A DNA stretch of 48,321 bases from the IMG/VR virus record IMGVR_UViG_3300025030_000039, positions 380,878 through 429,198 of that record; one strand, 5' to 3'. The DNA comes from a virus. The translations under genes and the position numbers were made by a program. Under the pieces are notes generated by a model. The model had not been told where the DNA came from and ran no database searches. It worked only from the letters and a program-made list of their open reading frames with translations. The stretch's first letter is position 1. The number at the start of each line of letters is the position of its first letter. This document shows, piece after piece, positions 15,881-40,729 of this stretch.

Positions 15881-15882
15881 AG

Positions 15883-17080: not shown

Positions 17081-17083
17081 ATT

Positions 17084-21185: not shown

Positions 21186-21260
21186 ATGGTAATACTTGGT
21201 AATAGCATATTTTAATTAATATGGTAAATTATATATTATTTATGCATACATCAAGATGCA

Positions 21261-21300
21261 TTATATAAACACCGAATGCTAACAATAATGTTAGCATTTG
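21261..21300 (-). terminator. rho-independent terminator after hsp20-like gene
   Basis: ccgaatgctaaca / tgttagcatttgg 13-bp stem (one G-U), loop ATAA, followed on minus RNA by UGUUUAUAUAAUG. Confidence 0.5.
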
Positions 21301-21324
21301 GAATATTTTAAATTTTAAGCTATA

Positions 21325-21681
21325 TTATAAAATTTTTACTTTCTTTGATTTTAGTTTTTCTTTTAAAGGACATTTAATACTTAAAACTCCATTTTTTATA
21401 GAAGCCTCTATATTATCTAAATCTACGTCCCCTTTTACTTTAAATTTCTTTTCAAATTTCTTTTTTAAACCTATTTCTTCTCCAGAGTAAGAAATTAAAA
21501 TAATATCACCTTCAGTTTTTAAATCTATATCCGATTTATCATATCCGGGAATAAGTACATCTAAAATATAATAATCATCTTCTTTTTTAACTTCATATGA
21601 AGGTGAAGTTATTGTATTTACACTTGTTAAAAGTGAATTAAATAATTCATTTGCTAAATCATTAAATGTTGTTGTTGTCAT
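21325..21681 (-). CDS. small heat-shock protein (Hsp20/alpha-crystallin family)
   Basis: YYILDVLIPGYDKSDIDL...GEEIGLKKKFEKKFKV...DNIEASIKNGVLSIKCP alpha-crystallin domain pattern. Confidence 0.6.
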   Translation of the reverse strand: MTTTTFNDLANELFNSLLTSVNTITSPSYEVKKEDDYYILDVLIPGYDKSDIDLKTEGDIILISYSGEEIGLKKKFEKKFKVKGDVDLDNIEASIKNGVLSIKCPLKEKLKSKKVKIL

Positions 21682-21780
21682 AATTTAAAATTTTTTATAT
21701 TAATTTATAAAATATATTCAAAAATTATACCAAAAGTATATTTTAATTTAAAAATGACTATTCGTCATATATTTGACAAA

Positions 21781-21824
21781 AATGACAAATTAAAATAGGA
21801 ATCTAGATTATAAATTCCTATTTT
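21781..21824 (-). terminator. rho-independent terminator after 21832..22089
   Basis: aaaataggaat (21792-21802) / attcctatttt (21814-21824) perfect 11-bp stem, 11-nt loop, minus RNA continues AAUUUGUCAUUUUUG. Confidence 0.5.
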
Positions 21825-21831
21825 AAAGTTA

Positions 21832-22089
21832 TTATGCTTGTACTTCAGCATTAACTACTGGAGTTGAAGCTTCTGCTTCTTTTCTTGGTTTAAATACTCT
21901 AACTGCTTTAGATACTAATTCAGCATCTTCTAACGAATATACACCAGCTTTTTGAGCAAGTGATGCTCCTTGAATTAAAATACCAATTGCTTGTTCTTGA
22001 GTTAACTCATCTTTAAAAGGATCAAATTGTTTTTCTTTACTTTCCATAATTTTAAAATTTTTATTTGTAATTACATTTATTATATGCAA
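21832..22089 (-). CDS. hypothetical small acidic protein (85 aa; may start at internal Met MESKEK)
   Basis: ORF with locally higher GC/codon quality; bracketed by terminator hairpin. Confidence 0.45.
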   Translation of the reverse strand: MHIINVITNKNFKIMESKEKQFDPFKDELTQEQAIGILIQGASLAQKAGVYSLEDAELVSKAVRVFKPRKEAEASTPVVNAEVQA

Positions 22090-22107
22090 ACCTAATTATA
22101 AGTTTCA

Positions 22108-23196
22108 TTAAATATTTTTAATTATTATTTTAGATATATATTCAACATCATTTTCAGTTAGTTCAGAATACATTGGTATAGCTAATACTTCTTTTGACAA
22201 ATTTAATGCAATTGGCATTTCTATATTTCCATAAAGTTTTTTAATTAATGTAAATTCTGAACATATAGGATAAAAATAAGGTCTACTTGATACATTTTTA
22301 ACTAATAAATCATTTTTAATTTTATCTCTATTTGGATGTTTAATTATCATATAGATATAATTATAATGAATATTTTTATTATCATATTTGGTAAATATTA
22401 TATCATTTGGAAGATATTTTTTATAAAACTCAAATACATTCTTTCTTTTTGATATTATTAAATCCAAATCATCTAATATACATAAACCCATAGATGCTTG
22501 AAATTCATTCATTTTACCGTTTGTTCCTGGATATATTACGTCATATTCTTCATTAAATCCAAAGTTACTGAATAGTTTAGATATTCTAAATATTTCTGGA
22601 TTATTAAATGTAATTAATCCTCCTTCTATTGTATGAAATACTTTTGTAGCATGAGTTGAAAAAACAGAAACATCTCCAAAATTACCTATACCAATATTAT
22701 TAATAGTAACTCCAAACATATGAGCTGAATCATATATTGTATACAAATCATATTTTTTAGCAATAATTTCTATCTTTTCTATATCTACAGGATTACCATA
22801 AATATGAACTGGTAATATAGCAGCTGTATTTTTTGTTATTTTTTCTTCTATTTTATTAATATCTATATTACCATCATTAATGTTAACATCAATAAATATA
22901 GGAATATTTCCAGAATTAATAATAGATGTTATGGTTGCAGCAAATGTAAAAGGAGTAGTTATTATTTCTTTTCCTTTTATTCCTAAAATAGAAATAGTAG
23001 CTTCTAAAGATGTTGTTCCATTTAAAAAAGGATACACATAATTTACACCTAAATAATTTTTAGCAGAATTAATATATTCATTATGAATAGGACCAAAATT
23101 AGTAAGCCAAGATTCTTTCCAAATTCTATTTAAATATTTAATATATTTCTTTTTATCAGGTAAATAAGGTTTAACTACAGGTATATGTTTTTTCAT
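22108..23196 (-). CDS. DegT/DnrJ/EryC1/StrS-family PLP-dependent sugar aminotransferase
   Basis: GTTSLEATISILGI.GKEIITTPFTFAAT...IPIFID...AILPVHIYGNP.D...DSAHMFG...STHATKVF (PLP-Lys) pattern. Confidence 0.6.
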   Translation of the reverse strand: MKKHIPVVKPYLPDKKKYIKYLNRIWKESWLTNFGPIHNEYINSAKNYLGVNYVYPFLNGTTSLEATISILGIKGKEIITTPFTFAATITSIINSGNIPIFIDVNINDGNIDINKIEEKITKNTAAILPVHIYGNPVDIEKIEIIAKKYDLYTIYDSAHMFGVTINNIGIGNFGDVSVFSTHATKVFHTIEGGLITFNNPEIFRISKLFSNFGFNEEYDVIYPGTNGKMNEFQASMGLCILDDLDLIISKRKNVFEFYKKYLPNDIIFTKYDNKNIHYNYIYMIIKHPNRDKIKNDLLVKNVSSRPYFYPICSEFTLIKKLYGNIEMPIALNLSKEVLAIPMYSELTENDVEYISKIIIKNI

Positions 23197-28087: not shown

Positions 28088-28618
28088 TTATAACGTTTGT
28101 TTATATTCATTAATTAATTCTTTTATTGTATCTATTTCAACAGGAGCTAAATTCCAACAATCTGCGCATACATTAATTCTATTTTCATTTGCTTTATGCG
28201 GAAAATCTTTATAATTATGACCGTGAAAATGGAATATTCCATCTTCTTTTCCATTCCAGTATTCAAGAGGCCAATGACATAAAATAGCTTTTAATTTAGG
28301 TAATTCAATTATTTGATCATCATACATTTTTACATTATCATATAATTGAGCAGATTCTTTTAAAGCTTTATCTGTATTACCGTTTAAAAAATAAATTTTA
28401 CCTTTTAATTTGCCTAGCATAATATTTGCTATAAAAGGATCCCATGCAAAATTTCCTAAATGATAAACTATATCATTATCTTTAACTTTATCGTTCCATA
28501 ATTTAGTCATTTTTTCATCCATTTCTTCAACTGATTTAAATGGTCTTTTAGCATGATTAATAATGTTCTTACGACCAAACATCGTATCGGAAGTAAGAAA
28601 TATTTTAGTTTTACTCAT
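28088..28618 (-). CDS. calcineurin-like metallophosphoesterase
   Basis: FLTSDTMFG, GNFAWD, GNTD, HFHGHNY metal-ligand blocks. Confidence 0.55.
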   Translation of the reverse strand: MSKTKIFLTSDTMFGRKNIINHAKRPFKSVEEMDEKMTKLWNDKVKDNDIVYHLGNFAWDPFIANIMLGKLKGKIYFLNGNTDKALKESAQLYDNVKMYDDQIIELPKLKAILCHWPLEYWNGKEDGIFHFHGHNYKDFPHKANENRINVCADCWNLAPVEIDTIKELINEYKQTL

Positions 28619-28620
28619 AA

Positions 28621-29601
28621 TTATCCAAATAATTTAATTTTAATTTGTTTTTCAGGAGTATTTTCTCCATAATATTCATCATGCCAATCATTAACTAAAG
28701 AAAAATCAAATTTGTCAAAATAATCATGTATTTCGCGTTCTTGAAAATTAGATAATGAAGTTATTGATTTTTTAAACACTTGTTGTTTATAACTTTTATG
28801 CGTTATAACTAATGGCCATTTTTCTTGAAATAAATCATATTCTTTTTTTCTTATTTCCATTCTTCTATCTCCACCAATTGAACCTTTAGAATTATTAACA
28901 TTATCTAAAGTTTCAAACTTTCTTTTTCCGTCTTCAAAATTTATTGTTGACATCGGTATAGTATGCATAAATGAAAAATACCTACTAATAATTAAAGGTA
29001 AAAATTTATGAGATGCAACCTGCATAGTAAAATCTGTATCTGATCTAAAATTTTCAAATCTATTATCATAATTACATTTTTTAGCCACTTTAGTATTTAT
29101 TATTACTAATTGAGCAGGATTTGAATATAAATTTATATAATTCTTTTGTTGTTTAGAAAAATGATGTATACTAATAGATGGAACTGTAACTAATCCTATT
29201 CTATCTAAGTCTGTTTTCATAACATGTTCTAAAGCTAATAATGTAGGATTAGATTCAAAAGTTTGTGAATGTTTAACATCATCATCATGATGAATATAAT
29301 AATCTCCTAATGTACAACCCCAATCTTTAAGATATTTAAATGTATTAATTATACCCATTCTAGTTGGATACCATTTAAATTCAACTTGTTTAAATTTTTC
29401 AACTAAATATTTTTTATCTTCATCTGAATATTCTTGTCCTAACACATGAACATTTGTTGCATTATAATGTTTAAATAAATTATCTAAACATGCATCAATC
29501 ATTAACGTTTCTTTCTTATGTTTAGTATATCTTTTTAAAGATGGAATCATTATAACTCCATTATATTCAAATCTATCATTTATTTTATTAGACATAATCA
29601 A
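28621..29601 (-). CDS. hypothetical protein (326 aa)
   Basis: ORF; HHDDD acidic cluster could be a DxD but unsupported. Confidence 0.4.
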   Translation of the reverse strand: MIMSNKINDRFEYNGVIMIPSLKRYTKHKKETLMIDACLDNLFKHYNATNVHVLGQEYSDEDKKYLVEKFKQVEFKWYPTRMGIINTFKYLKDWGCTLGDYYIHHDDDVKHSQTFESNPTLLALEHVMKTDLDRIGLVTVPSISIHHFSKQQKNYINLYSNPAQLVIINTKVAKKCNYDNRFENFRSDTDFTMQVASHKFLPLIISRYFSFMHTIPMSTINFEDGKRKFETLDNVNNSKGSIGGDRRMEIRKKEYDLFQEKWPLVITHKSYKQQVFKKSITSLSNFQEREIHDYFDKFDFSLVNDWHDEYYGENTPEKQIKIKLFG

Positions 29602-29809
29602 TCAATATTTTAGTTTTATGTTTTAAATTAATTTCTTCTTCAAATGATCTATATTGAAACCAATAATCTCCAAAAGATTTTTCTTGACCTTCCTTCCAAT
29701 TCATTTCTATATGTATAATATCATTTATTTCATTTATATTTTTTATACACAATAAAGGATATTGTTTTACTAACTCTGATATATTTTCTATTAATTTATT
29801 ATTTTTCAT
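29588..29809 (-). CDS. hypothetical small protein (73 aa)
   Basis: ORF only. Confidence 0.3.
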   Translation of the reverse strand: MKNNKLIENISELVKQYPLLCIKNINEINDIIHIEMNWKEGQEKSFGDYWFQYRSFEEEINLKHKTKILIDYV

Positions 29810-30494
29810 CTTTAATCAGTTTAATAAATTCATTTATTCCTTCAGTTGCTTTACTTTCAATTTTATTTATATACGCATAACCACCTACATTAGGAGTAGG
29901 ATCAATATAATAAATAGGTTTTAAATCATTAACATATTGTAATAAAGTAGCAGCTGGATAAACTTGTAATGTTGTTCCAATAATTAAAAAAATATCAGCA
30001 GATTTAACAATATTCATAGCATCAGATAATAATGGAACACCCTCTCCAAACCAAACTACAGCTGGCCTATATTCATTTAATTTAGAATTAGATAATTCTA
30101 AATATCCTATATTTATCCATTTAGAATTATCCATATCATCTTCATATTTTCGTATTTTTCTTAATTCACCATGAAGATGTAATATGTTTTTACTACCAGC
30201 TCTTTCGTGTAAATCATCCACATTTTGTGTTATAATAAATACATTATAATCTTTTTCTAATTCAACTAATTTAATATGACATTCATTTGGATGTACATTT
30301 GCTAATTCAGCTCTTACCGAATTATAAAAGGAATTCATTTCTTCTCTAATAGAATTCCATCCATTAATAGATGCATAAACTTCTGGATCATATTTTTCCC
30401 AAAGTCCACCTTTATCTCGATATGTAGGAATTCCGCTTTCTTGTGAAACACCAGCTCCTGTAAATACTACTAAATTTTTCTTATTTTTTCCCAT
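29799..30494 (-). CDS. Sir2-family (sirtuin-like) NAD-binding protein lacking the zinc-ribbon module
   Basis: GAGVSQESGIPTYRDKGGLW, ITQNVDDLHERAG, HLHGEL, PAVVWFGE; no Cys pairs where CobB/Sir2 has the Zn ribbon. Confidence 0.55.
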   Translation of the reverse strand: MGKNKKNLVVFTGAGVSQESGIPTYRDKGGLWEKYDPEVYASINGWNSIREEMNSFYNSVRAELANVHPNECHIKLVELEKDYNVFIITQNVDDLHERAGSKNILHLHGELRKIRKYEDDMDNSKWINIGYLELSNSKLNEYRPAVVWFGEGVPLLSDAMNIVKSADIFLIIGTTLQVYPAATLLQYVNDLKPIYYIDPTPNVGGYAYINKIESKATEGINEFIKLIKDEK

Positions 30495-30792
30495 CTGCTA
30501 TTTTATATCTTGAAATTAATTTTTTATTTGGTAATACACAATCTTCAATTATAGCCGGTTCTCGTGTAGGAATAAACCAAGGAACCCATACATGTCCAGG
30601 TGTTTTTTCTTCAACGCTCATTTGCCAATCATTATATTCTTCATTTAAAAATATATTTATTTTTTCTATTTTATCTGAATATGTTTTTTTACAATATTCT
30701 ATAAAATCTTTAACAATAGGTTCTTGTACAAATATAAGATTTCCTTTAGGTAATTTAGGTAATTTTTCCATTTTATTAAAATAAATCTTCAA
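30481..30792 (-). CDS. hypothetical protein (103 aa)
   Basis: ORF only. Confidence 0.3.
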   Translation of the reverse strand: MKIYFNKMEKLPKLPKGNLIFVQEPIVKDFIEYCKKTYSDKIEKINIFLNEEYNDWQMSVEEKTPGHVWVPWFIPTREPAIIEDCVLPNKKLISRYKIADGKK

Positions 30793-32032
30793 TTATATTA
30801 TCTACCGATTTTGATTCAACTTTATTTTTTTTAGACTTTAAAGTTTTAATACTTTTTGTAACATCATGCACTTTATGTAATTCAATTTGAATTGGTGTAA
30901 CTTTATATTTTTCTTTATTGTCTCGTAATATATTAACCAATTCTTTAGAATATTCTTTATCATTAAAATTAACTGCTTTAAACTGTTCTTCTATTATTTG
31001 TTTTCTCATAGAAGGATTACTCTTTATAGCTTTTATTCTTTTTTCTACATCTTCTCTATTAGATACATAATTAAATTTTTGGCAAATATCTGAATGACCA
31101 AATACACGTTTAGTAGGATCTAATTCAATATCAATTAAAGTTATAACAGAAGCCCATATACTTTGATAACATCTCTGAGGCATATCTCTTCCTTCATACC
31201 ACTCATCGCCTATAACAACATGAGTATATGTATCATTAGATTTTTCCATATAATCTTTAGCATCAACTGACTTTCCATAAATAGGAGGTCTGGGATTACC
31301 ATTTTTAGAAGCAATATTTAATAAATCTTCTGAATTTATTTTTCCAAACATTTCAACATTTATACTATCAGAATATCCAAAATAATATTTAACCATTTTT
31401 TTAATTCTTCTATTACCTCGCATTGTCCCTCCATATATTAAATCATAATTTGGTTTATCATTCATGGATAACGGATTATCAAGACATGGAAATTTTTCGA
31501 ATGGAAAATGAATAACATCTGCTACTTGTATTTCTGTTTTAGAAATAACTTCTCTAACATCATCTAATTTATATGGCTGTGAAATATATATTATATCATT
31601 TCGTGTTATTTCAATATCTTCTTGTTTATAATTAGAACTCCATTCTTTTCCTTTAATTGATCCCCAAGTTTGTCTTAATACTAATGCTGGATCACAATAA
31701 ATATAATAAATTTGACCGACAAATTTATTAATAATGAAATAATTTAAAATTTGATCCCTAGATTCAGCACCACCAAAATAATTTATGGTTCCGTTCAATA
31801 TAATTAATGCATCATATTTTCTATCATTAATTTTATCAAAATTATCTTCAATATTATAAAAATTAAATGTATTTGGATTATTATCTTTTGCTAAAATTTT
31901 TGTATAAATATCTATTTTTGCCCCACCTCTATGTAGAGTTTCAATTATATATCTAGCCTCATAATTTCCACCAGATGTATCTCTAGCATCCCATGCTATC
32001 CTAGAACCTATTTTAATTACTGCTATTTTCAT
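30776..32032 (-). CDS. bgt-like: DNA beta-glucosyltransferase homolog (T4 BGT-like, GT63-type)
   Basis: recalled T4 BGT blocks align along the length: MKIAVIKIG/MKIAIINMG, DALIILNGTINYFGG/DRLIVVNSSINFFGG, QIYYIYCD/KIYYLFTD, YDLIYGGTMRGNRRIKKMV/LDVIYGGSFRSGQRESKMV, VVIGDEWYEG...IWASVITLIDIELD/LIIGDKNYND...TMASDAVMLIDEEFD. Confidence 0.6.
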   Translation of the reverse strand: MKIAVIKIGSRIAWDARDTSGGNYEARYIIETLHRGGAKIDIYTKILAKDNNPNTFNFYNIEDNFDKINDRKYDALIILNGTINYFGGAESRDQILNYFIINKFVGQIYYIYCDPALVLRQTWGSIKGKEWSSNYKQEDIEITRNDIIYISQPYKLDDVREVISKTEIQVADVIHFPFEKFPCLDNPLSMNDKPNYDLIYGGTMRGNRRIKKMVKYYFGYSDSINVEMFGKINSEDLLNIASKNGNPRPPIYGKSVDAKDYMEKSNDTYTHVVIGDEWYEGRDMPQRCYQSIWASVITLIDIELDPTKRVFGHSDICQKFNYVSNREDVEKRIKAIKSNPSMRKQIIEEQFKAVNFNDKEYSKELVNILRDNKEKYKVTPIQIELHKVHDVTKSIKTLKSKKNKVESKSVDNIIEDLF

Positions 32033-32318
32033 ATCTCATTACTTGTTCAAGTCTACCAAATATTAAATCTACAAATTTATGTGTTGTAGTATCTCTATCA
32101 TATATTATTTTTGCACCTAATAAATTCATATCGATAATTTGTGGTACATTATTAGTTTCATCACAAATAACATCAATATTTTCGTGATTAATTAAAAATA
32201 TTCCCTTTAAAATTAAAGCAAATCCTTCTCTAAATTCAGCAGTATTAAAATAATGAGGATTATTCATTAATTCAGAGTTAACTTTACTATAAATATTTGA
32301 CACTAATTCTTTTTTCAT
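32013..32318 (-). CDS. hypothetical protein (101 aa)
   Basis: ORF only. Confidence 0.35.
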   Translation of the reverse strand: MKKELVSNIYSKVNSELMNNPHYFNTAEFREGFALILKGIFLINHENIDVICDETNNVPQIIDMNLLGAKIIYDRDTTTHKFVDLIFGRLEQVMRYENSSN

Positions 32319-32375
32319 TATATTCTTATTTTATTATTCAGACCTATCTCAAACTATATTAAATTTAAGATCTAA

Positions 32376-32591
32376 TTATTTGTTAAGTTGGAAGATTCTT
32401 GATAGATATTCTTTACTTAAAGTTTCAGCATCTTTTAGTTTACTAAACATTTCTTCTCTGACATCTTTCAAAGTCCTATCATTTGTTTCAAAACGCGATT
32501 GTAGGAAAGTATGAAAATTTATTTTATCTTCATCAGATAATTTATCGTATATTTTTTTAATTGCTTCTAAATATGTTAATTTATTTTGCAA
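32376..32591 (-). CDS. hypothetical small protein, paralogous to 32576..32800
   Basis: shared pattern xNKLxxxxxxxKxLSxxDKIxFxxFxxxxxE with neighbour. Confidence 0.35.
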   Translation of the reverse strand: MQNKLTYLEAIKKIYDKLSDEDKINFHTFLQSRFETNDRTLKDVREEMFSKLKDAETLSKEYLSRIFQLNK

Positions 32592-32800
32592 ATTTGTTTT
32601 GTTAAAAATTCAACATTAAAATAAGGTTCTTCTTTATCATTTTTTAATTTTAATAAATCATTAATAATATCTAATCTTTCATTAATTAATTCTAGATTTT
32701 CAACTTCTTGACTTCGTTTAATAAAAAAACCAAATTTTATTTTATCTCTATGACTTAATGATTTATATAAATCTTTTATGTCTTCTAATTTATTTTCCAT
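32576..32800 (-). CDS. hypothetical small protein, paralog of 32376..32591
   Basis: tandem duplicated small ORF; AGGAGG-like sequence 7 nt upstream of ATG. Confidence 0.35.
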   Translation of the reverse strand: MENKLEDIKDLYKSLSHRDKIKFGFFIKRSQEVENLELINERLDIINDLLKLKNDKEEPYFNVEFLTKQICKIN

Positions 32801-32951
32801 TTTTATCCTCCGTATTTTGTAATTTTTGTTTTAATTCTATTAAAATTTTATATTGATCGTCTGACCAAATTTGAACTTTCTTTTTATTAAAACCTTCATT
32901 TTCATCATTTCTATTTCGATCATTATTAGATCTTTCTTTAGTATTTTCCAT
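32790..32951 (-). CDS. possible small ORF (53 aa, N/D/E/K-rich) below ORF-track cutoff
   Basis: ATG at 32951; stop overlaps start of 32576..32800; low-complexity so may be spurious. Confidence 0.2.
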   Translation of the reverse strand: MENTKERSNNDRNRNDENEGFNKKKVQIWSDDQYKILIELKQKLQNTEDKNGK

Positions 32952-33455
32952 TTAAAAAATTTTGTTTTGTTTTATTTTATTATTGTTTTTATTATCTAAA
33001 TATATTATATCTATATCAAAAGGTGATACATAATATTTATTTATTTTATAATCAGCATATTTAACTTTGTTTATTTGATAATATATTTTAATATTTGAAT
33101 TATTTTCTAATGTATACCAAATATATTTAACAGATTTATTATTTAATCTGAATTCTTGTCTTTCTTTTATTTTTAAATGATTTTTATCGAATTCAATATA
33201 TGGTCCATGATCACCTATAACTATTCTATTATATCCTATTACAAAAACTTCTTTGTTAAAAATTAATAAATTATTTTCAGAAATATTTTGAAATTTATAA
33301 TATTTATCTAAATATTTTTTATAAATATTTCTTATTATTTGACTATCAATATTATCTAAACAATTATAATTTCCTCTATTAATATTTTCCCAATAAAAAT
33401 TCCAAACTTCTAATTCTTTATTATCTTTAATTTCTTTTAATATAAAATTATACAT
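32952..33455 (-). CDS. hypothetical protein (167 aa)
   Basis: ORF; 8-nt overlap with hydroxymethylase gene. Confidence 0.4.
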   Translation of the reverse strand: MYNFILKEIKDNKELEVWNFYWENINRGNYNCLDNIDSQIIRNIYKKYLDKYYKFQNISENNLLIFNKEVFVIGYNRIVIGDHGPYIEFDKNHLKIKERQEFRLNNKSVKYIWYTLENNSNIKIYYQINKVKYADYKINKYYVSPFDIDIIYLDNKNNNKIKQNKIF

Positions 33456-34329
33456 TACTTTTTATATTTGTATAAATCCAATTAAATAATTTATCTTCAC
33501 TTATAAATAATTTATCTTCTAATATACATGAAGTTAAATATTTAAATACAGAACTCATTTTACCTTTATTATCTATTATATTTAAATCTATTAATGGTAA
33601 TTCTAAAGGTACAAAAGGATGCGCTAACATTTCATTAATGAGTTCAAAATTTCGTTGATATATGTGAAGTGAATTATCTATATGTGTATATTTTCCAAGT
33701 TGTAAATCATGATATTTATCTTCCTTAAGAAGTTTAAACATTTGTTGATGTAATAAAGTAAAAAACGCTATATCAGTTGGTAAACCTAATATAGCATCGT
33801 TTGACCGCATTTCAACAGTAAAATCTAATTTATTATCTCTAATATGAAATATACCTGTTAGTGTACATACAAAATCTTTATTACCTTCAAATTGATGATC
33901 TGGTGTATTAAAATGCATTATAGCTTGTCTTGTATCTTTATCAGATATTAATGAATCATAAGCCCATTCCCATTGATTTTTATTATGTTCATTTACTCTA
34001 TTAAATAATAAATATCCATAAGCACTATTAACAGTTAATCCATCAGGATTAACTATTTGATTCCAAAATTTTGCGTATTTTGATATAAATTCTATAGTAT
34101 TATAACCATTAAAATACCATATTAATTCCGCGGAAATATATTGTAATTGACTGCCTCTTCTTTCATTTTTATATAATGCTGACAATGGATTTGTTATTTC
34201 AATAGATACATTAATATCTTCATTTACATTTTGACCTCTTGGAGATGTAATATATTGAGGATTATAATACAAATCAACTAATATTTTTTTATATGCTAAA
34301 GCAAATGTCTGTTCAGTATAAGTTTTCAT
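33448..34329 (-). CDS. thymidylate-synthase-superfamily dNMP hydroxymethylase, cytosine-type (T4 gp42 dCMP hydroxymethylase-like)
   Basis: DFVCTLTGIFHIR (catalytic Cys block, cf. gp42 DFMCTNTVQYLIR) and VEMRSNDAILGLPTDIAFF (cf. gp42 MRSNDVVFGFRNDYAW; Asp at the position that is Asn in thymidylate synthase PFNIASY). Confidence 0.6.
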   Translation of the reverse strand: MKTYTEQTFALAYKKILVDLYYNPQYITSPRGQNVNEDINVSIEITNPLSALYKNERRGSQLQYISAELIWYFNGYNTIEFISKYAKFWNQIVNPDGLTVNSAYGYLLFNRVNEHNKNQWEWAYDSLISDKDTRQAIMHFNTPDHQFEGNKDFVCTLTGIFHIRDNKLDFTVEMRSNDAILGLPTDIAFFTLLHQQMFKLLKEDKYHDLQLGKYTHIDNSLHIYQRNFELINEMLAHPFVPLELPLIDLNIIDNKGKMSSVFKYLTSCILEDKLFISEDKLFNWIYTNIKSNV

Positions 34330-34965
34330 TACTGATTAGCTTTTAATATTATATTTTTTATTTGATTATTAATTTCTTCAGGTGTATGATTAGAAACATT
34401 TATAAGATATTTATGATAAATTTTACTTTTATTAAAAGCTTCTTCAAATGCTTCTTTTTCTATTTTAACTTCTTCTACATTTTTATAAAATGATAAACCA
34501 TCATCTCTTTTAAGAATTGTTTCTGGATCATTTACAAATACAAACATAAATAAATTATCTTTTAATTCATTTACATATTGTTTTTCTATATCTAAAATAT
34601 AATCACCAGAATATTTTCTATATAAAGGAGCATATACCAATTCTCCTAAATGACTCCTATCAAAAATATAATTATAAGAATTATTAGAAAACAAATCTGA
34701 TGACATTTTATTATTTATACTTTCTATCATCATTGTAAACATTTGATTGTATAAAGTAGTAGAATAATTTATATGTTCTTCGTCTTTATTGAAAGGTAAT
34801 CCACTATAATGAAATGTTTGAAATACATTTCCTTTTCCTAAAATATCAGAAGCTTGTATAAGTTTTATTTGAGTTCCTTTACCTGTATTGTACTCAGTCT
34901 GGCCCTTCCATAATAATATGCAATGGAAGGGCCAGATTTTTAATTTTATTTTTTATTTTGTTCAT
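34329..34965 (-). CDS. thymidylate/nucleoside-monophosphate-kinase-like gene interrupted by a frame change (N-terminal 23 codons in one frame ending at TGA 34894-34896; remainder in +1 frame)
   Basis: frame A: MNKIKNKIKNLALPLHIIMEGPD* (hhhEGxD as in TMK IVIEGLDG); frame +1 continues TEYNTGKGTQIKLI...IFDRSHLGELVY (GKGTQ and DRS lid-like motifs) through the annotated ORF 34329..34742. Confidence 0.4.
34901..34932 (-). promoter_or_regulatory. GC-rich perfect 11-bp inverted repeat (ggcccttccat/atggaagggcc, 10-nt loop) immediately 5' (mRNA sense) of the frame-breaking TGA; candidate recoding/bypass or terminator-like structure
   Basis: direct reading; perfect complementarity; on the plus strand followed by a T-rich run (agatttttaattttattttttattttg). 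Confidence 0.45.
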
Positions 34966-34991
34966 ATTTTAAATATTTTTCTTGTGTTATT

Positions 34992-35609
34992 TTATCGAAT
35001 ATTATTAATTTCTGCTTTATTATCAATAAAGGATTCTATAGTACCCTTATTTTTTTCTTCTTTAACGTTTTCTTCTACTAAAATTAAGTCTCTATAATTA
35101 GGATATCTTTTAATTAAAATTTCTAACATTTTAATATCATTATGTTCTCTTATTTCTTCTGATTTTAATTTTTTTATTTTTTCTTCTTCAATATGAGCTA
35201 ACTCAACCTCTTTTCTAAGAAGTTCTATAACTTTCCAATCTTTATGTGTTTTAATTAAAACATCTGCATTTTCATGATTATGAATTAATTCAATATTAAA
35301 ATAAAGTTCTTTAATATTAGAATTTAAAGTATTATAACTTGATTGTAATGGTAAAAATTGTGATAAATATTTATTAATATCTATATCAGCATATAAATCT
35401 ATATTTAATTCATTAATTACATTATATTTAATAATATAAAAAGAATATTCATAATAAGCTAATTTATTTTGGTTTTCTATTTCAGTTAATAAAATATTAA
35501 TAATTTCTTCAACATTTGAACCTTTTATTACAATTTCATTATCATAAAATTTAGTATATCCTTTTAATTGAAATTCACTCTTGTAATTTAATGCTAATTT
35601 ATTTTCCAT
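34992..35609 (-). CDS. hypothetical protein (205 aa)
   Basis: ORF only. Confidence 0.4.
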   Translation of the reverse strand: MENKLALNYKSEFQLKGYTKFYDNEIVIKGSNVEEIINILLTEIENQNKLAYYEYSFYIIKYNVINELNIDLYADIDINKYLSQFLPLQSSYNTLNSNIKELYFNIELIHNHENADVLIKTHKDWKVIELLRKEVELAHIEEEKIKKLKSEEIREHNDIKMLEILIKRYPNYRDLILVEENVKEEKNKGTIESFIDNKAEINNIR

Positions 35610-35656
35610 AATTTTTATTAATTTTATTATATTATATGCACAATATTATATTTTGT

Positions 35657-35950
35657 TTAAATTTTATTAAATAATTTTTCAATTATTAATTCCGTTTCTT
35701 TTATATCGTCTTCAGTAGGTATAGGAACAATATTAACTTCAAAGATTGGACCTTTTTCTACTTTTCCATTATCTATTATTTTGCCCATCGCTCTTAATGA
35801 TATATTTAAAGTTTGTCCAAATTTTTCCTTTATTTCATTAAACAATGAGTTGTTAGTAATTTTAAAATTTATTAGTGTATTATTACTTTCATCAAATTCA
35901 GTCCAGCCGACAATCTGTTCTATATATTTAACAGGTACTAATCCGTTCAT
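35657..35950 (-). CDS. hypothetical protein (97 aa)
   Basis: ORF only. Confidence 0.35.
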   Translation of the reverse strand: MNGLVPVKYIEQIVGWTEFDESNNTLINFKITNNSLFNEIKEKFGQTLNISLRAMGKIIDNGKVEKGPIFEVNIVPIPTEDDIKETELIIEKLFNKI

Positions 35951-35951
35951 C

Positions 35952-36698
35952 TTATTTTATATTATTGAAATAATTATTAATTTCATTTAATTCACTTTCA
36001 GTATTAAAACTTTTTGTTAAAAATTTATCATCTAATATTAATAAATGAGCAGGTTCATTTATATTCCATAAATAATGAACAATATCTAAAAATATTAATT
36101 CTTTATTTATATACTTTCCATTTTTATCTAAAACATTATGAGCAGTTAATAAATGATTATAAAAATTATTATTTATCACAAATATAGATTGATCGTGATA
36201 TCCATCCGAAATTTTATCACCTCTTTTACTAAACATTGCTTGTTCTGCTTTATTGTCTGAAAATTTAAACCATACATACGGATTTTTTTCATATATTACA
36301 GGTATAGTAAGACTAGTAGTAGTTTTAATATTTGATATATTTTCAAACAATTCTTTATTTGAAAAATAAGTATCTCCCCAACAAATAGAAATATTATCAT
36401 ATACATTAGTATCTATAAATCCTAATGTTTCTAATATTGCATGCCCACAACCTCTTCCTGATTTAATAGGTATTAAATGTATTTTATCATCTAAATCTAT
36501 ATAATTATGTATAACTTCTTTATAAAGATCAAAATTTGTATGATTAGAGGCAATTATAATTTGATCATAAAATTCATAAGCATTTTCTATAGTATGCAAT
36601 AAATTTGGTTTACCGTTTATTAAAGATATCGCTTTAGGCAAATATCCCATTCTTGAACTGTCACCAGCCGCTATTATAAGTAATACTTTTTTATTCAT
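35952..36698 (-). CDS. IspD/TarI-family sugar(alditol)-phosphate cytidylyltransferase-like protein
   Basis: LLIIAAGDSSRMGYLPKAISLINGKPNLLH matches the AAGxGxRMG..PKQ...L.G.P glycine-rich loop of IspD/TarI/MobA-like NTP transferases. Confidence 0.5.
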   Translation of the reverse strand: MNKKVLLIIAAGDSSRMGYLPKAISLINGKPNLLHTIENAYEFYDQIIIASNHTNFDLYKEVIHNYIDLDDKIHLIPIKSGRGCGHAILETLGFIDTNVYDNISICWGDTYFSNKELFENISNIKTTTSLTIPVIYEKNPYVWFKFSDNKAEQAMFSKRGDKISDGYHDQSIFVINNNFYNHLLTAHNVLDKNGKYINKELIFLDIVHYLWNINEPAHLLILDDKFLTKSFNTESELNEINNYFNNIK

Positions 36699-37095
36699 TA
36701 GTAATGAGATCGAATGTAAATATTTTTTTAAAAATTATTTCTTGTTCATTTTGTGTGCCTGTAGATCTAATTCCAACTCTTAAATCATCTAAAATTTCTT
36801 TTGCTATATTACCTTTAGGTGTTTTTAATATTTCTAAATTAACATAAATTTCATTATCATTTTCATAATAAATGTCTGTTATAAGATGAGATACATTAGC
36901 TAAAGAAATTTCAAATTCAGTAGGATTATATAATTCTCCTAATAATGTTTTATTTTTAATTTTTTCTTTTAAGTGTTCTATATTTTGTTTTAGACTTTCC
37001 TTATTAACATTTACCCATCTAGGTTCTGTTAAATCTAATGCTAATGCTTTATAAGCAATAGGAATTAATTTATATTTTTCTTTATTCATTTTCAA
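36691..37095 (-). CDS. hypothetical protein (134 aa)
   Basis: ORF only. Confidence 0.35.
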   Translation of the reverse strand: MKMNKEKYKLIPIAYKALALDLTEPRWVNVNKESLKQNIEHLKEKIKNKTLLGELYNPTEFEISLANVSHLITDIYYENDNEIYVNLEILKTPKGNIAKEILDDLRVGIRSTGTQNEQEIIFKKIFTFDLITNE

Positions 37096-37552
37096 TAATT
37101 AAATTTGTAAAATATCTTTTTTTAATTTCAAAAAAATTATTTTTAGAATTTGAATATTTTTTTACAGTATCTTTATCACAATATCCAGCAAATATAATAT
37201 TTATTTCATTATGTGATATATTTTCAATTTGCATTAATGCAATATAATCAAATGTTAATTTTTTAAAATAAACATTATCGTGATATGTAGCTCTATTTGT
37301 TTTAACATCTATTTTAAATCCAGCATGTATAAAATCATATCCACCATCACCTTTAACATTATTAGTATAATTTATTTCTGATACTTTATCTTCAAATAAT
37401 TTTTTATACGCTAATTCACCTAATTTGCCTATAATAATATCTTTCTTAACTTTTCGTTTTTCTCTATATTGAGCATTATGATTATTGAAAGATTTATTTG
37501 CAAATTCAAATAAATCTTTCAATTCATTTCGTTTTATTTGTATTTTTATCAT
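37082..37552 (-). CDS. hypothetical protein (156 aa)
   Basis: ORF only. Confidence 0.35.
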   Translation of the reverse strand: MIKIQIKRNELKDLFEFANKSFNNHNAQYREKRKVKKDIIIGKLGELAYKKLFEDKVSEINYTNNVKGDGGYDFIHAGFKIDVKTNRATYHDNVYFKKLTFDYIALMQIENISHNEINIIFAGYCDKDTVKKYSNSKNNFFEIKKRYFTNLIIENE

Positions 37553-37928
37553 AATTGCTTTTAAATAATTCTATAAATTCAGGATAAAACCATCCTTTAA
37601 AATTTTTATCTTTTTCTAATTTTAAAATAAAATCATAAGACTCTTTAGATCCTATTTGTACATGTAATGTTTTAAGTTCTCTTTCACTTTCACGAAGTTT
37701 AATATGATCATTAGAAAAATTTCTAGCAATTTTATAAATATCTTTTGGATCAGGAGCATTATCAGGATTATGAACACGCTTCCAAATGAGATTATGAATA
37801 TAAGCACTTGCTGTTTTAGTATGATAATCTGTTTTAACTTCTTCTGAATATTCACGTTTAACAATATAATAGTATTGTAATTCTCCTATTGCTCCATCTT
37901 GTAATTCAAAAAATCCATCTTCTATCAT
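37524..37928 (-). CDS. hypothetical protein (134 aa)
   Basis: ORF only. Confidence 0.35.
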   Translation of the reverse strand: MIEDGFFELQDGAIGELQYYYIVKREYSEEVKTDYHTKTASAYIHNLIWKRVHNPDNAPDPKDIYKIARNFSNDHIKLRESERELKTLHVQIGSKESYDFILKLEKDKNFKGWFYPEFIELFKSNYDKNTNKTK

Positions 37929-37929
37929 T

Positions 37930-39768
37930 TTACGAAATTAATTTTAAAAGTTTCAATGTATCATGTGGATTATTGACATCATATACAATAGTTGTTTTAA
38001 CTTCTCTAAATACTGAATCGTTTCCTTTTTCTAATTCATCTCCGACGAATAAAATTGATGCGTCTTTAAATCTATTATATTCAAATATAACTAATTTACT
38101 ATATCCTTTATGCATTATGTCTATAGTAGATCTTCCATTTAATTTAATTTCATATTTATCTCCAATTAATACTTCTAAATCTTTCGCCTTTATTATTCTT
38201 TCATTTTCTTTAAATCGTCTAAATGAAATAATCACATTATTTCTATTTTCAAATTTATATACTGGTATATTACATTTAACTGCAGCATTATAAATTTCAT
38301 TAATTTGATCATTTGTTAATACATATTTATTAGTTAAGTAATGCGAAAAAATATATTCTCTTTTCTTATTATCCCATACACATTTACTATTTCCACCATC
38401 ACAAAATAACTCGTTTTTATAATCACCAGAAGTATTACAATATTTTTTAAGTTGTTTATTAATGTGCTCAACAGAATTACCAGTTAAAATTGAAAATTCT
38501 GGATTTTTATATATTATTTCTAGATTATGTCTAGATTCGTTAATAAATGAATCCTCGTATCTAGATACTAAAGTACCATCAAAATCAAATATAATTTTAT
38601 CTTTATTAATTAATTCTGTATAATAATTTCTAATAATTATTTTGGCTAAAAGATCACCATTATGTACACTTGCAATAGTTAGAGAATAAGGATCATTAAT
38701 AATATCTTCTGTTATAATATCATTAGTTAAAGCAGTTTCAATATATTTAAAAGAAGGATCAATTTTTCGCATACTTTCATGAGCATTAGAATTAACTATA
38801 GTTATTATGTCTTCTAATGGAAGATATTTATTTAGAATATGTTGCATTTGACCAGCATTTATGCCTTTCATATCGCTATCTTGTACATTATTCATAATTA
38901 AAAATTTTAAAGCTTTTGATTCTTTAATAATTTTTTTGAAGTCTTTATGTTTATAAGTAGGTATTAAAGAGGACCACTGTGTACCAGGTCCAAAAGTTAT
39001 GATATCTGCTTCTTTAATTTTTTCTAAAACTTCATTAGAAATTTCGGGAATTACTTCTTCATTTTTATTATTTACCAATCTAATATCTACTATAGGATCA
39101 TCTTCATTATCCCATTTAACAATAATTGCTTCATCTAATAGTAATTTACCAGATTTAGTAAATGCTTGTAAATATAAACTAACATCTGATATTAATAATA
39201 CTCTATCTTCAAGTATTCTAAATACCTCTTTAGCCATTATCTTACCAGCAGTCGCTAATGAAAAATTATTCAATCCAGCTAAACCTGCATATATCATGTT
39301 AGCAATAGAAAAATTATTAAATGATATTAAATCTATATTCCTTTGAGAAAAGAAACTATCTACAGCAGGATTAATTATATTATCTAAAATATTTAAATTT
39401 AATGTTTTATCTTCTTCATTAAATGAACAATTATTAATAATTTCTTTTTTTATTTCTAATAACATTTCATTAATATGATTAAAACTAGCATCTTTAGAAT
39501 TTAAATCTATTCTTTTAAATAAAAAACCTTTAATTAAATTAGCAAGTGGACTATTATCGATAAATCCATATGCGTATTCTTGATTTTTTCTTAAATCTGA
39601 AGGTCCTAATATTTTACCATCATAATTTTTTCTAACTTCTCCTGTTGATAATCCATTATCATAACAATTAGTTATTAAAGTTAAAGTTAAATCTTTATCA
39701 AGAAGTCTATCTAATCCATTTTGTAGAGTTATTGTACCTCCACCACCTGTAAATGATACTATTTTCAT
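37930..39768 (-). CDS. CofD/YvcK (UPF0052, 2-phospho-L-lactate transferase-like) domain fused to a C-terminal HAD-like hydrolase domain
   Basis: N-terminal KIVSFTGGGGTITLQNGL...LTLITNCYDNGLSTGEVRKNYDGKILGPSDLRKN parallels YvcK/CofD GGGTG..LL.GL...ITAIVTVADDGGSSGRLR..GI.PPGDIRN; residues ~395-405 KIIFDFDGTLV = HAD motif I. Confidence 0.5.
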   Translation of the reverse strand: MKIVSFTGGGGTITLQNGLDRLLDKDLTLTLITNCYDNGLSTGEVRKNYDGKILGPSDLRKNQEYAYGFIDNSPLANLIKGFLFKRIDLNSKDASFNHINEMLLEIKKEIINNCSFNEEDKTLNLNILDNIINPAVDSFFSQRNIDLISFNNFSIANMIYAGLAGLNNFSLATAGKIMAKEVFRILEDRVLLISDVSLYLQAFTKSGKLLLDEAIIVKWDNEDDPIVDIRLVNNKNEEVIPEISNEVLEKIKEADIITFGPGTQWSSLIPTYKHKDFKKIIKESKALKFLIMNNVQDSDMKGINAGQMQHILNKYLPLEDIITIVNSNAHESMRKIDPSFKYIETALTNDIITEDIINDPYSLTIASVHNGDLLAKIIIRNYYTELINKDKIIFDFDGTLVSRYEDSFINESRHNLEIIYKNPEFSILTGNSVEHINKQLKKYCNTSGDYKNELFCDGGNSKCVWDNKKREYIFSHYLTNKYVLTNDQINEIYNAAVKCNIPVYKFENRNNVIISFRRFKENERIIKAKDLEVLIGDKYEIKLNGRSTIDIMHKGYSKLVIFEYNRFKDASILFVGDELEKGNDSVFREVKTTIVYDVNNPHDTLKLLKLIS

Positions 39769-40043
39769 TTTAAAATTGTTAAAATTATCATATTAATAAT
39801 TGCGAATATAAACCAATACATTAAATATTCATTAGTATCCGAATTAAATTTTATACTAAATTCTTCTTGAGATATCTCTTTTATTATTTTATATCCCATA
39901 TAATTATATTCTATATTATTTGAATCAATATAAACATTTTTATTATTACTATTTTGAATAGCCTCATCTATTAATTTATCAGTTCCATTTATATTCAGAT
40001 AATACTGATCTTTATTTTGTATTTTAATTTTTTTCATAATCAA
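39765..40043 (-). CDS. hypothetical protein with C-terminal TM helix
   Basis: YLMYWFIFAIINMIILTIL. Confidence 0.35.
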   Translation of the reverse strand: MIMKKIKIQNKDQYYLNINGTDKLIDEAIQNSNNKNVYIDSNNIEYNYMGYKIIKEISQEEFSIKFNSDTNEYLMYWFIFAIINMIILTILK

Positions 40044-40729
40044 AAATCGGGATTTGTAATTCTTATATCGTAAGTTGTAAAATTTTCAAAATCTAATTCA
40101 TCTGCTTCTAATCTTCTATTTAAACTATCACCTGGCATTTTTCTTTGTGCTAATCTAGTTTTTCTAACAGTTTTAGGTATGTCAAAATACATTATAAAAC
40201 AATTTTTTCTATCAGCTTGTGAAATTTTAGATATACCAGATGGTGTCATTATAAAAATATCATCTTTATAAAATTGTTGTTTTGATGTTCCATAATGCCA
40301 TCCATTAAAACTAACGTATTCATACCAAAACCTTGATTGTATTTTTTCTTCAAAATCTTTATTTGAAATAAAAACATAATCTTTATTATTTACTTCTCCA
40401 TCTCTTGGTGGCCTAGTAGTATACGATGTAGCATACACATATCCTTTATCTTCAAATAATTTTCTAGCATAATCTTTGCCAGATGCAGCTGCTCCTACTA
40501 ATATTATTCTTTTATGATTTCTATAAAAATATTTTACTTCTATTGTGCATGTTTGCATACTTCTAGCAACTGGTAAAATATTAATTTCTTGAATATCAAC
40601 CATTATAGGATCTAAACCATTTCTAATTAAATTTTTTTCTAATATAATATTAGTCAATTTATTATTTCTATCATATTTTTCAAATAAGCTAGAATCATCT
40701 TTTGATATTATAAAAGTTGTAGATAACAT
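40040..40729 (-). CDS. guanylate-kinase-fold nucleoside monophosphate kinase with ~75-aa N-terminal extension and atypical P-loop GAAASGKD
   Basis: YATSYTTRPPRDGEVNNKDYVFISNKDFEEKI...GWHYGTSKQ aligns with GMK TTRPPRPGE..G.DY.FVS..EF...I...YGTS; P-loop ends in D (as in T4 Dnk GVKRSGKDT) rather than S/T. Confidence 0.5.
   Translation of the reverse strand: MLSTTFIISKDDSSLFEKYDRNNKLTNIILEKNLIRNGLDPIMVDIQEINILPVARSMQTCTIEVKYFYRNHKRIILVGAAASGKDYARKLFEDKGYVYATSYTTRPPRDGEVNNKDYVFISNKDFEEKIQSRFWYEYVSFNGWHYGTSKQQFYKDDIFIMTPSGISKISQADRKNCFIMYFDIPKTVRKTRLAQRKMPGDSLNRRLEADELDFENFTTYDIRITNPDF

Follow-up and report, generated by a model that had tools for sequence, protein, structure and literature searches.

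What does a phage with a very AT-rich genome, set far from the T-even phages, make with genes that resemble those through which T4 hydroxymethylates and glucosylates its cytosine? The question is raised by a stretch of viral DNA of 48,321 nucleotides (IMG/VR record IMGVR_UViG_3300025030_000039, positions 380,878 to 429,198), which was analyzed as a whole and is referred to here as the window. A preliminary description of the window had proposed that it encodes a homolog of T4 DNA beta-glucosyltransferase (beta-GT) and a deoxycytidine monophosphate (dCMP) hydroxymethylase, and that the phage DNA carries glycosylated 5-hydroxymethylcytosine (hmC). Both assignments hold in profile, structure-database, and residue-level tests, and a glycosylated hmC genome is the best-supported reading of the locus. 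With moderate confidence, and judging from sequence comparisons, we further propose that the region from 28621 to 40729 is a conserved huge-phage module which makes such DNA and which includes a phage-encoded supply of the sugar donor.

Genome-wide searches were made on LR756500.1 ("uncultured phage," unannotated, 462,018 bp), in which the window is found at 100% identity, with window position n corresponding to LR756500.1 position n + 118,149. The set searched consisted of 975 open reading frames (ORFs) of at least 50 amino acids (aa). The G+C content is about 22% for the window overall (range, 20 to 26%) and 24.3% for the whole 462-kb genome. All long ORFs of the window are located on the minus strand, as are all features of the module described below.

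The ORF at 33448..34329 encodes a protein of 293 aa of the thymidylate synthase (TS) family (PF00303, E 1.4e-18, 67.5 bits against a cut-off of 24.3) and is a predicted 5-hydroxymethyl-dCMP synthase. Its nearest sequences in the Protein Data Bank (PDB) are the CMP hydroxymethylase MilA (E 6.6e-27) and T4 dCMP hydroxymethylase gp42 (E 1.9e-18), and true thymidylate synthases match more weakly, with E values of at least 3.6e-11. The protein contains the motif MRSNDAILGLPTDIAF. In the numbering of Escherichia coli ThyA, C146, S167, and D169 are kept, and the substitutions L143D, H147T, and N177D are present; the catalytic Cys146 is the Cys of a DFVC motif, and Ser167 and D169 belong to the MRSND motif to which the preliminary description had pointed, together with the Asp at the position of N177. 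N177D is a mark of cytosine specificity (Lee et al. 2026, PMC13326640). Water access, and thereby hydroxymethylation rather than methylation, is provided by an acidic residue at L143, and D169N marks the flavin-dependent 5-hydroxy-dCMP synthases, having been seen in every such synthase tested (PMC13326640). Preference for deoxyribose is marked by Ser167 and Arg126', in the place of which MilA has Ala176 and Lys133 (Zhao et al. 2016, PMC5175136). When the protein of the window was aligned with MilA, Ser (of MRSND) was found opposite Ala176 and Arg (of a DTRQ motif) opposite Lys133, which is the deoxyribose type. As far as can be read from its residues, the protein thus carries the complete dCMP hydroxymethylase pattern, with all published signatures, and readings as a 5-hydroxy-dCMP synthase, a thymidylate synthase, a dUMP hydroxymethylase, or a CMP-specific enzyme like MilA are rejected in view of the diagnostic residues. 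N177D and L143D are common to the TS-like proteins of the window and of the phage contigs L005, L008, and Ralstonia phage RsoM2USA. The TS-like genes of the phage contexts compared below form two subclades, one MilA-like and one gp42-like, all with hydroxymethylase residues.

The product of 30776..32032 (418 aa) is a full-length homolog of T4 beta-GT, an enzyme of glycosyltransferase (GT) family GT63 with a GT-B fold. It passes the Pfam model for the N-terminal domain, PF09198 T4-Gluco-transf, at 81.7 bits (cut-off, 27). PHROG 7922 (beta-glucosyltransferase) matches residues 1 to 355 with profile positions 1 to 339 of 358 (E 2e-52), and the sequence of the T4 crystal structure 1bgt matches residues 48 to 332 (E 4e-33); the D100A mutant of the T4 enzyme, entry 1nzd, was also among the structure-sequence matches. 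Identity to annotated b-gt genes of T-even-like and Enterococcus phages is about 27% over 84% of the length. We take Asp100 and Glu22 to be the catalytic pair of T4 beta-GT, with Asp100 as the base, and Arg191, Arg195, Arg269, Tyr261, and Gly188 to be ligands of uridine diphosphate (UDP). When the protein of the window was aligned with the T4 enzyme and eight relatives, the T4 residues E22, D100, G188, R191, R195, F213, G214, Y261, and R269 were all found to be kept in it, and S189 is replaced by Thr and E272 by Gln. Of these residues, E22, D100, R191, R195, R269, and Y261 are also kept in eight module-linked beta-GT homologs.

The main evidence that further genes belong to the same pathway is their repeated linkage to these two. 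We compared nine phage contexts: the window, L005, L100, L101, L007 (RsoM2USA), L008, L103, L104, and L105, the last of which is the same phage as that of the window but was counted among the nine. L005, L100, and L101 are close relatives, with proteins 30 to 65% identical to those of the window. L007 (a cultured phage, 41% G+C), L008 (52% G+C), and L103 (a soil contig) are distant huge-phage contigs of 344 to 368 kb, and L104 is a phage contig of which a 44-kb record was read and whose protein is also found on a 291-kb contig. The TS-like gene, the beta-GT gene, a gene for a nucleotidyltransferase of the NTP_transf_3 family, and a gene for a two-domain fusion protein occur together in all nine contexts, which span 22 to 52% G+C and protein identities of 26 to 63%. 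Two nucleotide kinases (one thymidylate kinase [TMK]-like, of 181 to 212 aa, and one guanylate kinase [GK]-like or of the gp1 type) are present in most of them. The fusion and nucleotidyltransferase genes are within a few kilobases of the beta-GT gene in every context and directly adjoin it in RsoM2USA and L104. In RsoM2USA, the nucleotidyltransferase gene lies in the last 760 bases of the linear record and the fusion and beta-GT genes in the first 3 kb, and the three genes are thus contiguous on a circular map. In L101, the genes for the fusion, the nucleotidyltransferase, a 181-aa kinase, the TS-like protein, beta-GT, and a 323-aa protein form a gapless, back-to-back operon of six. This linkage across deep divergence indicates that the sugar-phosphate enzymes, which the preliminary description had listed as neighbors foreign to T4, are conserved partners in the same pathway. 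Its suggestion that the chemistry may differ from that of T4 is borne out as well, these enzymes being partners of beta-GT in all the phage contexts that we compared. In the window, the module runs from 28621 to 40729.

Two of the partners form a putative sugar-donor cassette. The gene at 35952..36698 encodes a MobA-like (NTP_transf_3; PF12804, E 1.7e-9) sugar- or alditol-phosphate nucleotidylyltransferase, whose best NCBIfam alignments, all full-length, are to the uridylyltransferase domain of GlmU, to ribitol-5-phosphate cytidylyltransferase, and to IspD. The gene at 37930..39768 encodes the fusion protein (612 aa), in which a YvcK/CofD-like domain (residues ~1 to 385) is followed by a HAD-IIB domain (~390 to 612) resembling phosphomannomutase (PMM) and alpha-phosphoglucomutase (alpha-PGM). 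The AlphaFold model of the fusion has a predicted local distance difference test score (pLDDT) of 91.7. The N-terminal domain has the CofD fold and belongs to the Pfam CofD family, and its best matches in both sequence and structure are YvcK-type proteins; YvcK is, by NCBIfam naming, a UDP-GlcNAc-binding protein. The YvcK/GlmR model TIGR01826 scores 71.5 bits on the fusion, below its cut-off of 196, and we regard the domain, on these alignments, as a distinct subfamily of the CofD/YvcK superfamily. We reject a true CofD function in coenzyme F420 synthesis in view of the genomic contexts read and of the closer similarity to YvcK. The C-terminal domain has a DxDxT nucleophile motif, the Lys and GDxxxxD motifs, and a PMM-type cap. 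A profile built from 31 members of the fusion family matched YvcK-like proteins at 2.7e-27, alpha-PGM at 1.1e-14, and PMMs at 2e-14 to 3e-7 (one at 3.5e-5), with trehalose-phosphate phosphatase reaching only 1e-3. Across the family, there is no variation in the HAD catalytic motifs or in the Gly-rich and acidic motifs typical of the CofD/YvcK superfamily. Between the fusion and nucleotidyltransferase genes are two small conserved ORFs (36691-37095 and 37082-37552), which are 30 to 32% identical to the ORFs at the same position in L005/L006 and for which no Pfam match above threshold was found.

The cassette is also widespread in bacteria. The fusion protein has more than 100 full-length homologs; an IMG/VR scan with it returned no match, and a bacterial scan (one genome per species) returned 80 loci. 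The 33 bacterial loci with a full-length fusion that came from the scan and look-ups (L009 to L041 and L055) are nearly all from metagenome-assembled genomes (MAGs), mostly of gut Clostridia, Lachnospiraceae, Erysipelotrichaceae, and Christensenellaceae. In 33 of 33 such loci, a homolog of the nucleotidyltransferase of the window (23 to 33% identical) immediately adjoins the fusion gene. In all 33 and in a further bacterial locus, L102, the pair has GT2, YfhO, TagF-like, and flippase genes as neighbors, and two loci were read in detail. One is a cell-surface glycan locus with GT2 enzymes, a flippase, an acyltransferase, and genes for 3-deoxy-D-manno-octulosonic acid (Kdo) beside the cassette; the other, also a cell-surface glycan locus, has GT2, YfhO, a TagF-like enzyme, a flippase, and a deacetylase. 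A link of the cassette to Kdo genes as a general rule was dropped, since such genes occur only in two Erysipelotrichaceae loci, L009 and L012. More distant CofD-like domains are found in single polypeptides with the orders NTP_transf_3-CofD-GT2, CofD-GT2, CofD-NTP_transf_3, and GT2-CofD-HAD, which points to a nucleotidyltransferase and a glycosyltransferase as the working partners of the subfamily. Where bacterial cassettes have a GT2 gene beside them, those of the phages have beta-GT.

A second glycosyltransferase gene, at 28621..29601, which the preliminary description had missed, is confined to the closest relatives of the phage of the window. Its product has a GT-A, Rossmann-like fold and an invariant HxDDD motif, a metal- and nucleotide-binding motif of the DxD type. 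The gene beside it encodes a 176-aa protein without a family match (28088-28618), which is found beside the GT-A gene in L005, L100, and L101 (40 to 57% identical), with a second, diverged copy inside the L005 module (L005 5281-5823 and 11365-11895). The N-terminal FLTSDTxFG motif of this protein looks like that of a calcineurin-type metallophosphoesterase. The slot just downstream of the beta-GT gene is variable: it is filled by a 103-aa ORF and a Sir2 gene (29799-30494) in the window, by a MazG-like gene in L005 (9158-9460), and by a DUF6939 gene in L100 (9420-9992); the DUF6939 ORF of the window is located elsewhere (9795-10385). Different genes fill this slot in the relatives. The Sir2 gene, which the preliminary description had grouped with the sugar-phosphate enzymes, is not part of the conserved set.

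Two kinase-like genes had been noted earlier. The gene at 40040..40729 encodes a GK-like nucleotide kinase with a 70-aa N-terminal extension (PF00625, E 4.4e-16; PHROG 1815, E 2e-33) and is a candidate hydroxymethyl-dCMP/deoxynucleoside monophosphate kinase gene. The same flank of the cassette holds a GK-like gene in L005/L006 (54% identical), L008, and L103, and at this position L100 has a gene of the T4 gp1 type (deoxynucleoside monophosphate kinase, PF21448). The TMK-like P-loop kinase at 34329..34965, which had been taken for one gene, is not a single ORF. A 7-nt insertion (TGAGTAC on the coding strand; 34890..34896) lies in the P-loop EGPD/NTGKGT between the Asp and Asn codons and brings in an in-frame TGA and a frameshift, splitting off a 23-codon N-terminal piece from a 137-aa ORF (34329-34742). 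For this C-terminal part, the match to PF02223 is below cut-off (E 0.004) and that to PHROG 761 has an E value of 2.5e-8; upstream extension of the ORF in the same frame yielded no kinase N terminus. Without the 7 nt, the gene is an ORF of 209 aa that is collinear with the intact relatives in L005, L007, L008, L100, and L101 (181 to 212 aa), all of which have the EG.D..GK motif. An assembly error is an unlikely origin, since an independent Logan assembly of run SRR1658462 has the identical insertion (0 mismatches in 4,882 nt). Reassignment of the stop codon (code 4 or other) does not account for the broken gene, since with TGA translated as an amino acid a frameshift would still have to occur; among the 59 coding-strand stretches that run for at least 100 codons up to a stop, the stop is TAA in 49 and TGA in 10. 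Directly 5' of the insertion, within the coding sequence, is a 14-bp G+C-rich stem-loop (34898..34936), with a predicted RNA fold of -28 kcal/mol (z = -4.87) that none of 200 shuffled sequences equaled. No such complementary stretch was seen on reading the homologous L005 kinase sequence. The layout at the insertion (34890-34936), a purine-rich GAAGGG, a 3-nt spacer, GAC, and then UGA, resembles what we take to be the arrangement of the prfB +1 frameshift site and of the T4 gene 60 take-off site. Weighing against +1 recoding, the Asp tRNA could not re-pair, and the P-loop of the product would be two residues longer. The gene is probably inactivated; it could be a pseudogene or, alternatively, contain a recoding site.

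Taken together, these genes suggest the following pathway. Residue-level homology suggests that the TS-like enzyme would convert dCMP to 5-hydroxymethyl-dCMP with methylene-tetrahydrofolate and water. The GK-like kinase and, where it is intact, the TMK-like kinase may then form the diphosphate, host enzymes would form the triphosphate, and the phage polymerase would incorporate hydroxymethyl-deoxycytidine. The beta-GT homolog, to judge from its conserved residues, would move a hexose from a UDP-type sugar to the 5-hydroxymethyl group in duplex DNA. Its fold, DxD-type motif, and position in the module suggest that the GT-A enzyme attaches another sugar, either on top of the first one or at other hmC residues; the modification probably carries more than one sugar. 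As for the donor, domain identity and context suggest that the PMM/alpha-PGM-like domain converts hexose-6-phosphate to hexose-1-phosphate, which the MobA-like nucleotidyltransferase would convert to a nucleoside diphosphate (NDP)-hexose; the YvcK-like domain may bind the nucleotide sugar or help to make it. With these enzymes, the phage would produce the donor itself, whereas T4 draws on the UDP-glucose of its host. As in T-even phages, the modification would presumably shield the genome against restriction enzymes and further nucleases that target DNA.

Several observations weigh against this proposal. A simple supply line leaves the CofD-fold domain unexplained, as a plain mutase and nucleotidyltransferase would suffice. 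The nucleotidyltransferase scores far below every NCBIfam cut-off and reaches no curated family. The PF03332 PMM model gives 18.5 bits on the single fusion sequence, against a gathering threshold of 22.4, which bears on whether the domain is a mutase or a phosphatase. Position 272, presumably a UDP-ribose ligand in the T4 enzyme as Glu, is Gln in the beta-GT homologs of the window, L005, and L100. In this genome, unlike in relatives, the gene for the TMK-like kinase is interrupted. When the 975 ORFs were searched by phmmer and jackhmmer with T4 gp56 (dCTPase) as the query, no match was found, the sensitivity of this search being limited. Relatives L005 and L103 carry MazG/PRA-PH-like genes within the module, and queries with the MazG-like protein of L005, the PRA-PH-like protein of L103, and a NUDIX protein of L008 against the same ORFs likewise gave no match, again with limited sensitivity; a T4 alpha-glucosyltransferase (alpha-GT) query against the whole 462-kb genome, equally limited, gave none either. 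The earlier remark that no dCTPase or alpha-GT could be recognized in the window thus extends to the genome. Because a dCTPase was not found, complete replacement of cytosine is not established, nor is the complete pathway that the preliminary description had suggested.

Four other explanations were considered. The locus may encode a plain T4-type pathway, in which no more than the TS-like enzyme and beta-GT is involved and a simple beta-glucosyl-hmC is formed with host UDP-glucose as the donor, with the nucleotidyltransferase, the fusion, and the GT-A enzyme serving some other process, e.g., the glycan cluster located at 10.7 to 23.2 kb. The UDP-binding residues of T4 are indeed kept in the beta-GT homolog, Enterococcus phages like VPE25 have the TS-like gene and beta-GT without the fusion, and a separate glycan cluster with a need for nucleotide sugars is also present in the window. 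This explanation appears unlikely to us, given that the fusion and nucleotidyltransferase genes stay near beta-GT in nine of nine contexts across 22 to 52% G+C and deep divergence, adjoin it directly in RsoM2USA and L104, and share its operon in L101, and that the Kdo-type glycan cluster is not beside the module in the other contexts read. The unexplained CofD-fold domain raises another possibility, a phosphodiester hypermodification. The MobA-like and CofD-like proteins would act as CofC and CofD (FbiD and FbiA) do, the former making NDP-X and the latter moving phospho-X onto hmC or glucosyl-hmC with release of the nucleoside monophosphate; the product would be a teichoic acid-like decoration on DNA, e.g., a hexose-1-phosphate on the sugar or on the hydroxymethyl group. 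The domain, however, is nearer to YvcK, a protein named for binding UDP-GlcNAc, than to CofD/FbiA in both sequence and structure, and a PMM-like fusion partner and bacterial contexts with GT2 and YfhO are more simply understood as donor supply. Our literature searches turned up no phosphodiester-linked DNA base modification of this kind, and we consider this possibility improbable as well.

The remaining two explanations concern the chemistry of the base and the nature of the acceptor. The TS-like enzyme might make another product, such as 5-hydroxy-dCMP (as RB69 gp48 does), 5-methyl-dCMP, 5-hydroxymethyl-dUMP, or, like MilA, hydroxymethyl-CMP. MilA is in fact the best match among PDB sequences, and TS homologs with unexpected chemistry have been found recently (PMC13326640). 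The residues argue otherwise on each count: D169 is kept, whereas the tested 5-hydroxy-dCMP synthases have D169N; L143D speaks against methylation and N177D against dUMP as the substrate; and Ser167, with Arg at the position of Lys133 of MilA, is of the deoxyribose type. With a homolog of the hmC-specific DNA beta-GT as the constant gene partner, a different base is very unlikely. Finally, the transferases could act on a protein, a lipid, or a host surface polymer rather than on DNA, as might be supposed from the native occurrence of the nucleotidyltransferase and fusion in bacterial cell-surface polysaccharide loci and from the many further glycan enzymes encoded in the window. PF09198, however, is annotated and characterized as an hmC-DNA glucosyltransferase family, for which we know of no other acceptor, and beta-GT is accompanied by a dCMP hydroxymethylase in all nine phage contexts and by nucleotide kinases in most. 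We therefore give this last explanation almost no weight and retain the glycosylated-hmC module with its own donor supply as the preferred reading.

Some further observations concern the beta-GT homologs. Those of the window, L005, L100, and L101 have a Lys-rich C-terminal extension of about 50 to 60 aa (window 30776-30950) that those of T4, RsoM2USA, L008, and L104 do not have. The extensions end in conserved acidic-hydrophobic tails (...DNIIEDLF in the window, and ...DDMIDDIFL, ...EDILDMF, and ...DEDDIF), which recall C-terminal clamp-binding or SSB-type interaction tails; by analogy, the tail might tether the enzyme to the replisome. IMG/VR scans returned four beta-GT-like loci (L001 to L004; ~30% G+C) with proteins 35 to 37% identical to that of the window, and no other module gene was found within 10 kb of them. 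Only the L001 protein was aligned, and L003 and L004 score identically to each other. The L001 protein is without Arg191, Ser189, and Tyr261 and keeps Glu22, Asp100, Arg195, and Arg269. With no partner genes, and with UDP-site residues missing in L001, these loci were dropped as evidence for the module; the proteins may use another donor or serve another function.

Outside the module, a 12-kb glycan biosynthesis cluster (10747-23196, minus strand) lies a few kilobases downstream in the order of transcription. It encodes a SIS-domain (KdsD/KpsF-like) protein, a KdsB-like CMP-sugar synthetase, a KdsA-like Kdo-8-phosphate synthase, two methyltransferases, a polysaccharide pyruvyl transferase, a GT2 enzyme, a sulfotransferase, a KpsC/KpsS-like capsule (Kdo) transferase, an 836-aa GT4-type protein, a GT29 (sialyltransferase)-like ORF, Hsp20, and a DegT-type sugar aminotransferase. 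The cluster may serve to modify the virion or the surface of the host, or conceivably the DNA. The KdsA-like and KdsB-like proteins (11958-13712) are 43 to 48% identical to those of uncultured Erysipelotrichaceae MAGs (L012 and L009), of which L012 (26% G+C) also has the nucleotidyltransferase and fusion cassette; this similarity may point to the lineage of the host or to where the genes came from. The gene for subunit A of gyrase/topoisomerase IV is apparently split. Its N-terminal 56 profile positions are encoded by ORF 47183-47722, where an intein splicing domain comes after them, and the rest by ORF 45000-46232; between these two ORFs is one for DUF7487 (46229-47131). Outside the window (LR756500.1 248783-263903), at least three separate ORFs spread over 15 kb encode the T4 gp43-like family B DNA polymerase, and in L104 the exonuclease and polymerase parts are also apart, with a DUF7487 gene between them. 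A GIY-YIG/NUMOD3 homing endonuclease-like ORF (8914-9729) overlaps by 8 nt the start of a helicase gene (DEAD/ResIII, Helicase_C_2; 7182-8921), and in L008 and L103 a similar helicase gene separates the TS-like gene from beta-GT. The preliminary description had also mentioned small paralogous ORFs, which are only weakly supported: the adjacent ORFs 32376-32591 and 32576-32800 are 31% identical (pairwise E 2e-5), and blastp among coding-strand ORFs of at least 60 aa returned no pair at an E value of 1e-3 or lower.

Our results extend T4-style cytosine replacement and glycosylation, as predicted here, to a clade of huge phages with very different hosts. RsoM2USA, a Ralstonia phage, carries the core genes and is hence a cultured carrier of the module. 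The reproducible extra gene set predicts a more elaborate sugar modification and a self-supplied donor, and it provides a function-by-context lead for a widespread, uncharacterized bacterial two-gene cassette. If the proposal is correct, such DNA would resist many restriction enzymes as well as sequencing and cloning chemistries, a point of practical weight in handling these phages. Should the phosphodiester possibility prove true instead, the modification would be of a class absent from the literature searched, and the cassette would represent an unrecognized glycan-phosphorylating system in many gut Firmicutes.

Compared with the pathway of T4 and the T-even phages, the module shares a TS-family hydroxymethylase with the same active-site signature, a full-length beta-GT with the same Asp/Glu and Arg/Tyr residues, and kinases nearby. 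It differs in that its proteins are only about 27% identical to those of T4, that no homolog of gp56 or alpha-GT was found, that its kinases are GK-like and TMK-like whereas that of T4 is of the gp1 type, and that it adds the nucleotidyltransferase, the YvcK/CofD-like and PMM-like fusion, and the GT-A transferase, all in a genome of 462 kb and 24% G+C. The combination of mutase and nucleotidyltransferase beside glycosyltransferases follows the ManB/ManC logic of polysaccharide loci, although the nucleotidyltransferase of the window is MobA/IspD-like and not of the classical PF00483 type. YvcK/GlmR, the UDP-sugar-binding protein of Firmicutes, provides the best matches of the N-terminal domain of the fusion, and we know of no described case in which a YvcK-like domain is fused to a PMM-like one. 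The pairing of a MobA-like nucleotidyltransferase with a CofD-fold protein is shared with CofC/CofD (FbiD/FbiA) of coenzyme F420 synthesis; unlike in that system, no other F420 genes occur in the context listings read, the domain is nearer to YvcK, and it is fused to a PMM-like domain in loci for glycans or DNA glycosylation.

Phages RB69, DLP3, and HY126 make arabinosyl-5-hydroxycytosine by means of a TS-like 5-hydroxy-dCMP synthase and DNA arabinosyltransferases, and their genes for UDP-arabinose supply, which feed DNA glycosylation, include a HAD phosphatase and a nucleotidyltransferase-kinase (PMC13326640). Their pathway is a direct precedent for donor synthesis by the phage in the service of DNA glycosyltransferases, and the module resembles it in its proposed logic: a TS homolog for the modified dCMP, a phage-encoded NDP-sugar supply with a HAD enzyme and a nucleotidyltransferase, and serial DNA glycosyltransferases. 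In contrast to theirs, however, the TS homolog of the window keeps D169 and is of the hydroxymethylase type, not the flavin-dependent hydroxylase type; the transferase is of the T4 beta-GT type; the HAD domain is PMM mutase-like rather than heptose-bisphosphate phosphatase-like; and no YvcK/CofD-like domain has been described in their pathway (PMC13326640). Literature searches revealed no link of CofD/YvcK-like proteins to phage DNA modification and no earlier description of the module in the literature on LR756500, in the huge-phage paper, or in the MetaGPA paper; the RsoM2USA paper lists a beta-glucosyltransferase and is silent on DNA modification and on the fusion gene. The setting outside the T-even phages, which the preliminary description had stressed, is borne out but is not new. 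In the Enterococcus siphophages VPE25 and VFW, whose cytosines are modified, as shown by bisulfite resistance (PMC4999554), a TS-like gene already adjoins beta-GT, and their TS-like protein is 38 to 40% identical to that of the window. Unlike the phage of the window, VPE25 and VFW have no homolog of the full-length fusion, the nucleotidyltransferase, or the GT-A gene; one Enterococcus phage matches the fusion no more than partially (24%). The combination of a TS-like gene and beta-GT outside the T-even phages was therefore already known, and the new part is the conserved donor/decoration cassette together with the extra transferase.

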